Below are positions 40,439 through 43,461 of a DNA stretch of 64,000 nt, in pieces; the stretch's first letter is position 1; each line of letters starts with the position of its first letter. Origin of the DNA: Arcobacteraceae bacterium (lineage in GTDB: Bacteria; Campylobacterota; Campylobacteria; Campylobacterales; Arcobacteraceae); NCBI GenBank assembly GCA_963662945.1, contig OY759974.1:608001-672000 (forward strand), in the 5' to 3' direction. Under the pieces are notes generated by a model that saw only the letters and a program-made list of their open reading frames with translations, had not been told where the DNA came from and searched no databases. The translations under genes were made by a program, and so were the position numbers.

Positions 40439-40480
40439 TTGATGTAAGTCATATGTTTAATCTCTATTTCGATGTACAAT
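40439..40480 (+). promoter_or_regulatory. nrdD promoter: box TTGATGTAAGTCAT plus -10 TACAAT
   Basis: Box 40439-40452, 22-nt spacer, TACAAT 40475-40480. Confidence 0.83.
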
Positions 40481-40506: not shown

Positions 40507-42606
40507 ATGAAATACATCATTAAAAGAGACGGTTCAAAAGAGATATTTCAAGACTATAAAATAGAAGATGCTATTAAAAAAGCTTTTAAAAGTGTCAATA
40601 TATCTTATAACAGAACTATCTTCACTAAAGTTATAGATACTACTGTGGAAAAAAACATTAAAACAGTTGAAGAGATTCAAGACTTAATAGAAAAAACACT
40701 TTTTCAGTATCAATATTTTGATGTAATGAAATCATTTATTACTTATAGGTTTTTACATAAAATGCAACGTGAACATATCTTAGGCCTTGATAAAGATACA
40801 ACTTTTGTCAACTCAAGTGCAAGTGTAGAGGAATATATACATAAAAATGACTGGAGAATAAAAGCAAATGCAAATACTGGCTACTCAAACTCAGGACTAG
40901 TAAATAATCTTGCAGGAAAAGTGATAGCAAACTATTGGCTAGACAAAGTTTATACAAAAGAGGAAGGTTATGCTCATAGAAATGGTGATATTCATATCCA
41001 TGATTTAGATTGTTTAACTGGATATTGTGCTGGTTGGAGTTTAAGACAACTTTTAAATGAAGGGTTTAATGGAGTTCGTGGAAGAGTTGAAAGTGATGCG
41101 CCAAAACATTTTCGTGAAGCTTTGGGACAGATGGCAAACTTTTTGGGAATACTTCAAAGTGAGTGGGCAGGTGCTCAAGCTTTTAGTTCTTTTGATACCT
41201 ATCTTGCTCCTTATATTTTTATGGATGATTTAAGTTATACAGAGATAAAAAAAGCTGTAAGAAGTTTTGTTTACAACCTCAATGTTCCCTCACGTTGGGG
41301 ACAATCTCCTTTTACAAATATCACAATAGACTGGACTGTACCAGATGATTTAAAAGATCAAATACCTACACGATATGATTTCCATCTTTTTAAAAATATC
41401 AATTCTCTTTCTTTAATAGAAAAAGCACATCAAAGAGGAATAAAAAATCTTGAAGATTTAACCTATAAAGATTTTAAACCAGAAATGAATCTAATCAATA
41501 AAGCATACTATGAGATTATGACAGAAGGTGACAAAACAGGACAACCATTTACTTTTCCGATTCCAACAGTAAATATCACTGAAGATTTTGACTGGTATGG
41601 GGAAAACGTCGACATACTCCTAGAAAATAGTGCAAAAATTGGCTCAAGTTATTTTCAAAACTTTATAGGAAGTCAATATATTGTAGATGAAAATGGAGTT
41701 AAAATAGAGAACCTGGAAGCATATAAACCGAATGCTGTACGAAGTATGTGTTGTAGATTGCAACTAGATTTAAGAGAACTTCTAAAAAGAGGAAATGGTC
41801 TGTTTGGCTCAGCTGAAATGACAGGAAGTATTGGAGTTGTTACTCTTAATATGGCAAGAGTTGGGTATCTCTATAAAAATAATAGAATAGAGTTTTTCCA
41901 ACAACTTGAAAGACTTTTAAATATAGCCTATGAAACTTTAGAGAAAAAAAGAGTTGTGATAAATAAACTCTTTTTAGATGGCTTATATCCTTATTCAAAA
42001 CGATATTTAAAAGGATTTAACAATCATTTTTCAACTATAGGAATTAATGGTCTTAATGAAATGATACGAAACTATAGTGATGATACAGATGATATAACTA
42101 CAGATTTTGGAGAAGAATTCTCTTTAGAAATTTTAGATTTTATACGGGGAAAAATCAAATCATTTCAAGAAAAAAGTGGCAACCTCTATAATCTTGAAGC
42201 AACTCCAGCGGAAGGGACAACTTATAGATTTGCAAAAGAGGATAAAAAAAGATATCCAGATATTTTACAAGCAGGATTTGAAGATAAAATATATTATACA
42301 AACTCTTCACAACTCCCAGTTGATTTTACACAAGATCCATTTGAGGCACTTTTAAAACAAGATAAATTTCAAACCAAATATACAGGAGGTACAGTATTGC
42401 ATCTATATATGAATGAAAGATTACATAGCGTTGATTCTACACGAGAGTTTTTAAAAACTGTAATGGAGAATTTTAGATTACCTTATATCACATTAACACC
42501 AATATTTTCAGTATGTCAAAAACATGGATATATCAATGGAGAGCATGAATATTGTCCAAAATGTGACGATGAGATATTACAAAACCACACAAAGGAAGCT
42601 TCATGA
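40507..42606 (+). CDS. nrdD: Anaerobic (class III) ribonucleoside-triphosphate reductase, large part lacking the glycyl-radical loop
   Basis: ATP cone (IIKRDGS), IHIHDL, SMCCRL, NLEATPAEG, ends after CQKHG...CPKC. Confidence 0.95.
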   Translation: MKYIIKRDGSKEIFQDYKIEDAIKKAFKSVNISYNRTIFTKVIDTTVEKNIKTVEEIQDLIEKTLFQYQYFDVMKSFITYRFLHKMQREHILGLDKDTTFVNSSASVEEYIHKNDWRIKANANTGYSNSGLVNNLAGKVIANYWLDKVYTKEEGYAHRNGDIHIHDLDCLTGYCAGWSLRQLLNEGFNGVRGRVESDAPKHFREALGQMANFLGILQSEWAGAQAFSSFDTYLAPYIFMDDLSYTEIKKAVRSFVYNLNVPSRWGQSPFTNITIDWTVPDDLKDQIPTRYDFHLFKNINSLSLIEKAHQRGIKNLEDLTYKDFKPEMNLINKAYYEIMTEGDKTGQPFTFPIPTVNITEDFDWYGENVDILLENSAKIGSSYFQNFIGSQYIVDENGVKIENLEAYKPNAVRSMCCRLQLDLRELLKRGNGLFGSAEMTGSIGVVTLNMARVGYLYKNNRIEFFQQLERLLNIAYETLEKKRVVINKLFLDGLYPYSKRYLKGFNNHFSTIGINGLNEMIRNYSDDTDDITTDFGEEFSLEILDFIRGKIKSFQEKSGNLYNLEATPAEGTTYRFAKEDKKRYPDILQAGFEDKIYYTNSSQLPVDFTQDPFEALLKQDKFQTKYTGGTVLHLYMNERLHSVDSTREFLKTVMENFRLPYITLTPIFSVCQKHGYINGEHEYCPKCDDEILQNHTKEAS

Positions 42607-42767
42607 ATGATAAAAAAATTTTAGAACAAAACAAAGAAAAAAGAACAAAATGTACTGTTTATACAAGAGTTATGGGCTATCATAGACCAGTTGAAAGTTT
42701 TAATGTAGGAAAATATGCAGAGCATAGAGAAAGAAAATATTTTGTGGAAAACAAAGAAAATATTTAA
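42603..42767 (+). CDS. Separate NrdD glycyl-radical domain, 54 aa (absent from ORF track)
   Basis: MNDKKILEQNKEKRTKCTVYTRVMGYHRPVESFNVGKYAEHRERKYFVENKENI; ATGA overlap with nrdD stop; AAGGAAG RBS. Confidence 0.9.
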   Translation: MNDKKILEQNKEKRTKCTVYTRVMGYHRPVESFNVGKYAEHRERKYFVENKENI

Positions 42768-43461
42768 CTCTCTTACACCTTTTACACTTTTAGACTTTAA
42801 CTCATATCCATCTGCTATACTTTGGTTTAGTGGTTGTAATATGAGATGTCCATTTTGTTACAATAAAGATATTGTAGAAAATAGAGGAGAATACTCTTTT
42901 AAAGACTTCAGAACATTTTTAAACATACGACAATCTCTTCTTCAAGGGATTGTTTTATGTGGTGGAGAGCCTACAATTCATCCAGAAATTATAGAGATTG
43001 CAAAAGCATTAAAACAGCTAAACTATAAAATCAAACTCGATACAAATGGACTTAATCCAACTGTAATCAAAAAACTAATAGAAGATAATCTTGTTGATTT
43101 TATAGCACTTGACTTTAAAGCACCAAAATCAAAATTTGCTCAAATCACGAAAACTACAGAAAGTCTTTTTCAAAACTTTCTAGATACTTTAGTACTACTT
43201 ATTAGAAGTAATCAAGATTTTGAGGTGCGAACAACTTTTCATGATACTCTTTTAACTACAAATGATATCTATGAGATTTTAAATATATTAGAAAAATACA
43301 ATTACTATAAAACCTACTACATCCAAAACTTTATGAATAGTACTCAAACAATAGGTAATATAACAAATAAAAATCGTATAAATCTTTCCAAAATTATAGA
43401 TGGTTCACTGTACAACTTTAAGATAGAATATAGAAACTTTGATTTAGGTCAAGGTAATTAA
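42715..43461 (+). CDS. nrdG: Class III RNR activating radical SAM enzyme (start uncertain)
   Basis: GCNMRCPFCYN, GGEPTI, KLDTNG, FEVRTT. Confidence 0.92.
   Translation: MQSIEKENILWKTKKIFNSLTPFTLLDFNSYPSAILWFSGCNMRCPFCYNKDIVENRGEYSFKDFRTFLNIRQSLLQGIVLCGGEPTIHPEIIEIAKALKQLNYKIKLDTNGLNPTVIKKLIEDNLVDFIALDFKAPKSKFAQITKTTESLFQNFLDTLVLLIRSNQDFEVRTTFHDTLLTTNDIYEILNILEKYNYYKTYYIQNFMNSTQTIGNITNKNRINLSKIIDGSLYNFKIEYRNFDLGQGN

Follow-up and report, generated by a model that had tools for sequence, protein, structure and literature searches.

The closest described counterparts of the system reported here are the one-chain class III ribonucleotide reductases (RNRs), in which NrdD is paired with NrdG (NF006126/PRK08270; NrdDh in RNRdb). 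Among them are T. maritima NrdD (Protein Data Bank (PDB) codes 4COI and 4U3E) and N. bacilliformis NrdDh3, and all five PDB sequences that match the protein described below are single chains. The radical site is reported to be Gly621 in T. maritima NrdD (PMC4493059) and position 580 in phage T4 NrdD (PMC2795772), and glycyl-radical enzymes (GREs) are described as being cleaved by oxygen at the radical glycine (PMC13450708). Here we analyse a window of 64,000 nucleotides (the whole stretch, positions 608,001–672,000 of contig OY759974.1) from an Arcobacteraceae bacterium, in which the radical-glycine loop of a class III RNR is located not in the barrel polypeptide encoded by nrdD but in a separate open reading frame (ORF) of 54 residues, followed by nrdG. 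With the one-chain enzymes the locus shares the fold, the ATP-cone, the Tyr-Cys pair (Y173–C174, corresponding to Y124–C125 in T. maritima), the double-Cys motif, the Zn ribbon, the sequence of the glycine loop and the adjacent NrdG2; unlike in those enzymes, the loop and everything downstream of it form a separate product, and predicted helices have been added at both cut ends.

The product of nrdD scores 1,060 bits against NF006126 (cut-off 548) and 535 bits against Pfam NRDD, covering profile positions 2–532 of 562, and all top fold matches for a model of the large protein are class III RNRs. Its predicted Zn site has the spacing C670-x2-H673...C683-x2-C686, the candidate ligand residues being invariant or nearly so in the alignment. 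The signature of MCCR with a Phe has been used to define group NrdDh4 (PMC4493059), and MCCR with Phe433, the hydrophobic residue of the finger loop, places the core in this group on sequence grounds. An earlier note on this DNA had described NrdD as stopping at 42606 after its Zn site, and a separate ORF with its own ribosome-binding site (RBS) as carrying the C-terminal glycyl-radical motif. Coordinates, ATGA overlap and motif all proved to be as described: the ORF is preceded by AAGGA, contains YTRVMGYHRPVESFNVGK..EH.ER and matches Pfam NRDD over positions 532–562 of 562 (29.1 bits; gathering cut-off 26.2). A six-frame regular-expression search found the glycine-loop motif once in the genome, in this ORF. 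The nrdG product scores 184.6 bits against TIGR02495 (cut-off 131.15). By every tested feature except a one-chain glycine loop, the gene trio is a class III RNR.

We propose that this is a class III RNR whose radical is supplied in trans by an obligate second chain of 54 residues, and on the evidence of sequence comparison and modelling we assign this reading a probability of roughly 80%. The earlier note had suggested a radical subunit acting in trans, and the alignment of Gly25, the model of the complex and the conservation of the peptide make the peptide the very probable source of that radical. NrdG would put the radical on Gly25 of the peptide, which would dock in the barrel, and the radical would pass to the MCCR cysteine as in one-chain enzymes. 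Oxygen would then cut the peptide alone, and replacing it with a new copy might in principle return the 80-kDa body to activity. The complementary coverage of the NRDD profile by the two products counts in favour of two chains, as do natural re-fusions lacking the terminal extensions and a split system that has been studied experimentally, both described below. Phage copies of the peptide without a core imply action in trans.

Several observations establish that the split is not an artefact. Contigs of sequencing runs X1, X4 and X5 cross the nrdD/peptide junction without an indel, and X7 covers it in pieces; the check concerns assembled contigs rather than raw reads, X1 being possibly the source sample and X5 a separate study. 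Core and peptide occur together in 28 of the 61 related genomes; the core match in a 29th genome, G032, is a distant fused enzyme that belongs to a different subtype. Each of the 28 peptides occupies a short frame of 51–72 codons, and the gap from the core stop to the first peptide ATG ranges from −58 to +303 nt. Of 80 GTDB loci, mostly from Campylobacterota and Bacteroidota, 77 are split, none is fused and three are cut off by a contig end. The suspicion of the earlier note that the split is not unique was thus borne out, and neither an indel nor a fused close relative, the two findings it had named as contrary to its proposal, came to light in this clade. Among 104 loci the relative frames of the two halves are distributed 66/23/15, the spacing is 103–617 nt, and a Shine–Dalgarno word precedes the peptide ATG in 66 loci, compared with a background of 8%. 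The ratio of nonsynonymous to synonymous polymorphism (pN/pS) of the peptide is 0.084, calculated over 20 codons from 101 distinct cellular sequences; these were gathered by similarity, so that conservation is inflated.

The alternative that the two halves make one polypeptide through frameshifting, read-through or splicing, or that the split is an assembly error or a pseudogene, draws on the 4-nt overlap in this genome and on the many Campylobacterales in which both ORFs are in frame with a single TAA between them. It is largely refuted, and we give it almost no credence: the occurrence of three relative frames and variable spacing across the 104 loci rules out recoding, an intervening gene is found in some genomes, the peptide ORF has its own RBS and ATG, the contigs of other runs lack an indel, no Rfam family matches the junction at the gathering threshold, and purifying selection acts on the peptide. 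At L191 and L002–L004, in three genomes of one genus, about 300 nt with an unrelated reading frame lie between core and peptide. In L082, L087 and L100, titled Akkermansia, Bifidobacterium and Limnohabitans, nrdD and peptide resemble Bacteroidota versions, reflecting mis-binning or transfer; L100 also groups with Bacteroidota on the tree.

The distribution of the split form extends well beyond these genomes. A total of 647 short proteins match the peptide, several of them named 'anaerobic ribonucleoside-triphosphate reductase', and the split accounts for the many database entries of about 50 aa that carry this name. Matches were also found in 161 plasmid records, led by Ralstonia, Bradyrhizobium, Cupriavidus and Paracoccus, the layout being examined in the C. 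necator record. There, on megaplasmid pHG1 of strain H16 (L189:1762–4838), a 676-aa core of 76.2 kDa is followed by a 66-aa gene annotated nrdD and then by nrdG; this is the experimentally studied split system referred to above, and C. necator NrdDG has been reported to be essential for complete denitrification (PMC2864759).

Assignment of the radical glycine relies on natural re-fusions. In a phylum-wide search, 135 of 251 genomes had an NRDD match, and eight regions were cut out, from G156 and G257, from G089, and from G091, G280 and G211, together with two extra prophage copies. In the Campylobacterales genomes G156 (L194) and G257 (L195) the split-type peptide is fused straight to the Zn site and both terminal extensions are gone; G089 has a fused enzyme of another subtype, and G091, G280 and G211 are split. 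G091 had been a candidate fused enzyme and was rejected, as it has two ORFs split in frame. The frame of L195 is longer, at 922 codons, possibly owing to an intein. Aligned by way of a natural re-fusion, Gly25 (the glycine in TRVMGY) corresponds to T. maritima Gly621 and T4 position 580.

Core residues 95–699, the peptide and Zn were modelled together with ESMFold2. The complex score was 0.89 in three runs, the best of three controls reaching 0.00; contact agreement between runs was at least 92%, and the partner had a predicted local distance difference test score (pLDDT) of at least 82. A score of 0.89 is reached by 51 of 78 solved pairs and by 2 of 108 mismatches, and it measures fit rather than binding, as halves of a split gene may pass by likeness to solved one-chain structures. 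In the predicted interface, with about 170 confident contacts, peptide strand 15–21 pairs with core strand 666–670 and with Zn ribbon 679–683. Also part of it are core residues 686–694 and peptide residues 3–10, both predicted to be helical. In all 99 split tails the final Zn cysteine is followed by D-x-x-[LIV]-[LIVF], where 102 fused relatives have a link of 6 residues; Leu occupies peptide position 7 in 87 of 97 peptides. We infer from the model that the terminal helices (core 684–698, peptide 3–9) form a non-covalent clasp replacing the lost covalent turn. Cys17 of the peptide is invariant in all 92 cellular peptides and is predicted to lie beside C670 and C683. Its candidacy as a split-specific Zn ligand is unsupported, as several fused enzymes also have Cys there and the core has four candidate ligands.

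A number of points weigh against a radical supplied in trans. Residues of pyruvate formate-lyase (PFL) upstream of the oxygen cut are reported to be needed for YfiD binding (PMC8683613), so that exchange of the peptide after oxygen damage would not be exactly analogous to that system. The lone peptide gives a weak model (mean pLDDT 62, residues 38–50 below 50); the model of the complex lists no confident contacts to C415/C416 or the finger loop; and many phage peptides lack the N-terminal helix, so that the clasp is not always needed. To these is added a glycine of the core itself: Siedow et al. (1999) reportedly assigned the radical of the C. necator core to Gly650, and a G650A change reportedly had the phenotype of a deletion.

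Position 650 of the H16 core is the HG glycine of the Zn ribbon (Gly674 here), which is invariant in alignment A2. A reading in which the radical resides on this glycine and the peptide is an accessory is nevertheless very improbable. Of 119 fused relatives, 118 retain the C-x-x-H-G motif alongside a normal glycine loop, and this motif matches the Zn ribbon in 4COI, 8P23 and 1H78, whereas Gly25 of the peptide aligns with the known radical site. A mutation beside a Zn ligand at the predicted docking surface would explain lost function, and the G650A result, if correctly reported, is best read as damage to the Zn ribbon and docking surface. The reported placement of the C. necator radical on Gly650 may need correcting.

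Table 1. Features of the split class III RNR locus, in nucleotide positions of the window or residue numbers of the product.
Feature	Position	Strand	Remarks
nrdD core	40507–42606	+	699 aa; ends 13 residues past Cys686
ATP-cone of nrdD core	residues 2–85		class III barrel of PRK08270/NrdDh4 type follows
Motifs of nrdD core	Y173–C174; MCCR 414–417; F433; Zn ribbon C670/H673/C683/C686		without Gly loop
Predicted C-terminal helix of nrdD core	residues 684–698		
Shine–Dalgarno-like AAGGA of small ORF	42591–42595	+	inside nrdD 3' end; 12–8 nt before ATG
54-aa glycyl-radical peptide ORF	42603–42767	+	4-nt ATGA overlap with nrdD
Predicted peptide elements	helix 3–9; strand 14–23; Gly25		Gly25 equivalent to T. 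maritima Gly621 and T4 Gly580
nrdG activase (radical SAM, TIGR02495 NrdG2)	42715–43461	+	53-nt overlap with peptide ORF
FNR/Crp-like palindrome TTGACTTAGGTCAA	40394–40407	no strand	about 100 nt upstream of nrdD, common to divergent moaA

In addition to the palindrome listed in Table 1, FNR/Crp-like boxes of the form TTGA-N6-TCAA are found at 40439–40452, likewise in the moaA–nrdD gap, and at 43439–43452, before moeA; the window contains 15 exact copies and the genome 204. Of 34 Campylobacterota loci, 4 have such a palindrome upstream of nrdD, compared with 15 of 834 background windows; none of 30 Bacteroidota loci has one. These sequences hint weakly at possible anaerobic control of nrdD.

Of 150 representatives at 50% identity, 73 stop after the Zn site and 58 carry the loop, with 19 left out as partial or unclassifiable; the loop-less representatives were seen without genomic context, and some may be truncated. 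The loop-less state changes 24 times on a core tree of 142 rows, compared with 45 times for shuffles, and at least 11 of the changes are forced by starred branches; the tree gives no direction, fission and fusion being inseparable on it. The NrdD of the window falls in a starred set of 13 loop-less rows. Eight fused NrdDh representatives (P0146, P0148, P0158, P0168, P0177, P0184, P0238 and P0242) run past the glycine loop into a domain with a CPxC motif, which looks glutaredoxin-like from its sequence and may be a built-in reductant. Most representatives in the range P0121–P0270 are far above 700 aa and matched in several stretches, a pattern that suggests frequent inteins in the long NrdD sequences.

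What, if anything, the split is for can be read in two ways. It may have been selected as a cartridge against oxygen damage, allowing cells to remake 54 residues rather than 750 after every exposure, which would add a purpose to the supply of the radical in trans; we regard this purpose, close to the replaceable subunit for a microaerophile that the earlier note had suggested, as possible while leaning towards doubt. Apart from cleavage by oxygen at the radical glycine, it is favoured by the named carriers of the split, Campylobacterota, Bacteroidota, Cupriavidus, Ralstonia, Paracoccus and Bradyrhizobium, which are mostly oxygen-exposed, aerobic Bacteroidota among them. All 119 relatives of the fused representative P0179 are fused and are named mainly as Desulfovibrionales or sulfate reducers; this contrast is one between two clades, not between independent cases. 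The repeated changes of the loop-less state on the tree also speak for a cartridge, whereas a loop-less core, seen without genomic context, is also found in Caldimicrobium, an anaerobe. Fifteen Campylobacterales genomes have a full-length match without stops; G089, the one that was cut out, has a fused enzyme of another subtype, and two more genomes have re-fused, which argues against oxygen-driven selection. The genome contains one NrdD core and one NrdA/NrdJ-family large subunit, NrdA-like, with a 357-aa neighbour that by look resembles NrdB, again in keeping with a cartridge; against it, the genome has a single copy of the peptide, and no separate promoter stands out (17 sites in a scan, with 19 expected).

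Alternatively, the cut may be a selectively neutral and reversible fission of a surface turn that tolerates breaks; the two chains would assemble once and then work like the one-chain enzyme, without useful exchange. This is a serious possibility that we hold at somewhat less than even odds. The repeated gains and losses on the tree and the re-fusions within Campylobacterales fit this explanation, as do translational coupling, which suits 1:1 synthesis, and the large predicted interface. Against neutrality stand the absence of any fused form among 77 assessable close relatives from two phyla, the conserved new helices at both cut ends, and the retention of a lone peptide by phages under purifying selection, for which the host would have to offer an unoccupied docking site or activase.

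The peptide occurs in 80 viral loci, and 79 of these have neither an nrdD core nor nrdG in the available flanks, which extend for at least 3 kb on both sides in 40 of the 79. A whole-record search of 27 of the 30 viral cluster representatives found the core in one 6.8-kb fragment alone, and three viral records that are at least 90% complete have the peptide and no core. The radical glycine is kept in all 48 distinct phage peptides, the glycine being part of the motif by which they were selected, and pN/pS is 0.18 for 55 sequences. Searches of annotated phage isolates with the peptide gave no match, and the peptide alone gave no meaningful hit in the PDB.

Many of these copies lie close to lysis genes. 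Of the 29 orphan clusters, 15 (14 at E < 1e-5) have a holin, endolysin, amidase or lysozyme at most two genes away, a count that covers all but a few of the neighbouring genes and takes L164 to represent its cluster, L158. The neighbours belong to several unrelated endolysin families. Control windows of four genes were taken from the same loci at a distance of 3.5 kb or more; 1 of 27 has a lysis gene, a figure biased downwards, as phages generally have a single lysis cassette. Thymidylate synthase adjoins one cluster. Two Campylobacterales genomes have both the NrdD operon and a prophage copy, one behind a holin and the other between holin and endolysin. The lysis-adjacent copies are L113, L115, L116, L119, L131, L142, L145, L148, L149, L150, L151, L154, L159, L164, L172, L196:2842–3031 and L197. 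Upstream of the peptide, at a distance of a few genes, two phages encode a reverse transcriptase (L132:5909–7177 and L153:6723–7718), possibly as part of a diversity-generating retroelement.

Candidate roles for the phage copy are late-phase support of the deoxyribonucleoside triphosphate (dNTP) supply, a decoy for the host core or activase, or occupation of a favoured insertion site. The peptide may act as an exchangeable part. The fuller proposal, that it is an exchangeable radical cartridge and the first spare-part-like cofactor outside the formate lyases, that the cut has been made and undone many times, and that phages captured the cartridge alone, is put forward tentatively, with the odds against it. 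If true, oxygen-exposed bacteria would renew the radical without remaking the enzyme, and a cartridge carried by temperate phages, often in a holin–endolysin cassette, would dock into the core or activase of the host in the late phase of infection, keeping the dNTP supply running or tying lysis to oxygen or DNA-precursor status. The lone phage copies suggest a phage–host interaction, of which a targeted literature search found no description.

We found no description of a split class III RNR with a detached glycine loop in the open literature, although supplements and subscription papers may mention it, and the small gene already stands in the RefSeq annotation of C. necator H16 without comment. 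For a two-chain enzyme, the product of the large gene purified alone would be dead, and a free natural substrate of 54 residues would ease structural work on activation by NrdG. With three small genes and a tractable strain, C. necator H16, spare parts beyond the formate lyases become directly testable. A June 2026 review names formate lyases as the one GRE class for which spare parts have been identified and sets class III RNRs aside (PMC13450708), and a 2021 paper on YfiD considers it possible that other GREs have spare parts as well (PMC8683613).

Like GrcA (YfiD) of E. coli and Y06I of phage T4, the autonomous glycyl-radical cofactors of PFL described in the latter paper, the peptide is a small stand-alone radical-glycine protein that would act in trans and that has phage-borne copies (PMC8683613). 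It differs from them in having no PF01228 match at E values up to 0.1, in its length of 54 aa rather than about 127, and in its partner, an RNR; a profile search found no PFL/GrcA-type domain in this genome. Moreover, the core is never encoded whole, so that the peptide is obligate and not a spare. The likeness to GrcA drawn in the earlier note therefore holds for a small radical-glycine protein acting in trans and fails for a spare serving a full-length enzyme. The split class II enzyme NrdJa/NrdJb of Pseudomonas aeruginosa is likewise reported as a two-gene RNR with the C-terminal part as a separate chain (PMC5704485), but it depends on B12, and its detached part is a cysteine-rich reducing domain, not the radical loop. 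Phage RNRs in pieces (Aeh1 nrdA-a/b, the T4 nrdD intron, phage 949 and phiAS4) are a further parallel, the Aeh1 pieces being reported as functional (PMC3653736). Unlike those sporadic breaks by introns, inteins or homing endonucleases, the junction described here contains no mobile element, and its site is fixed and conserved across phyla.

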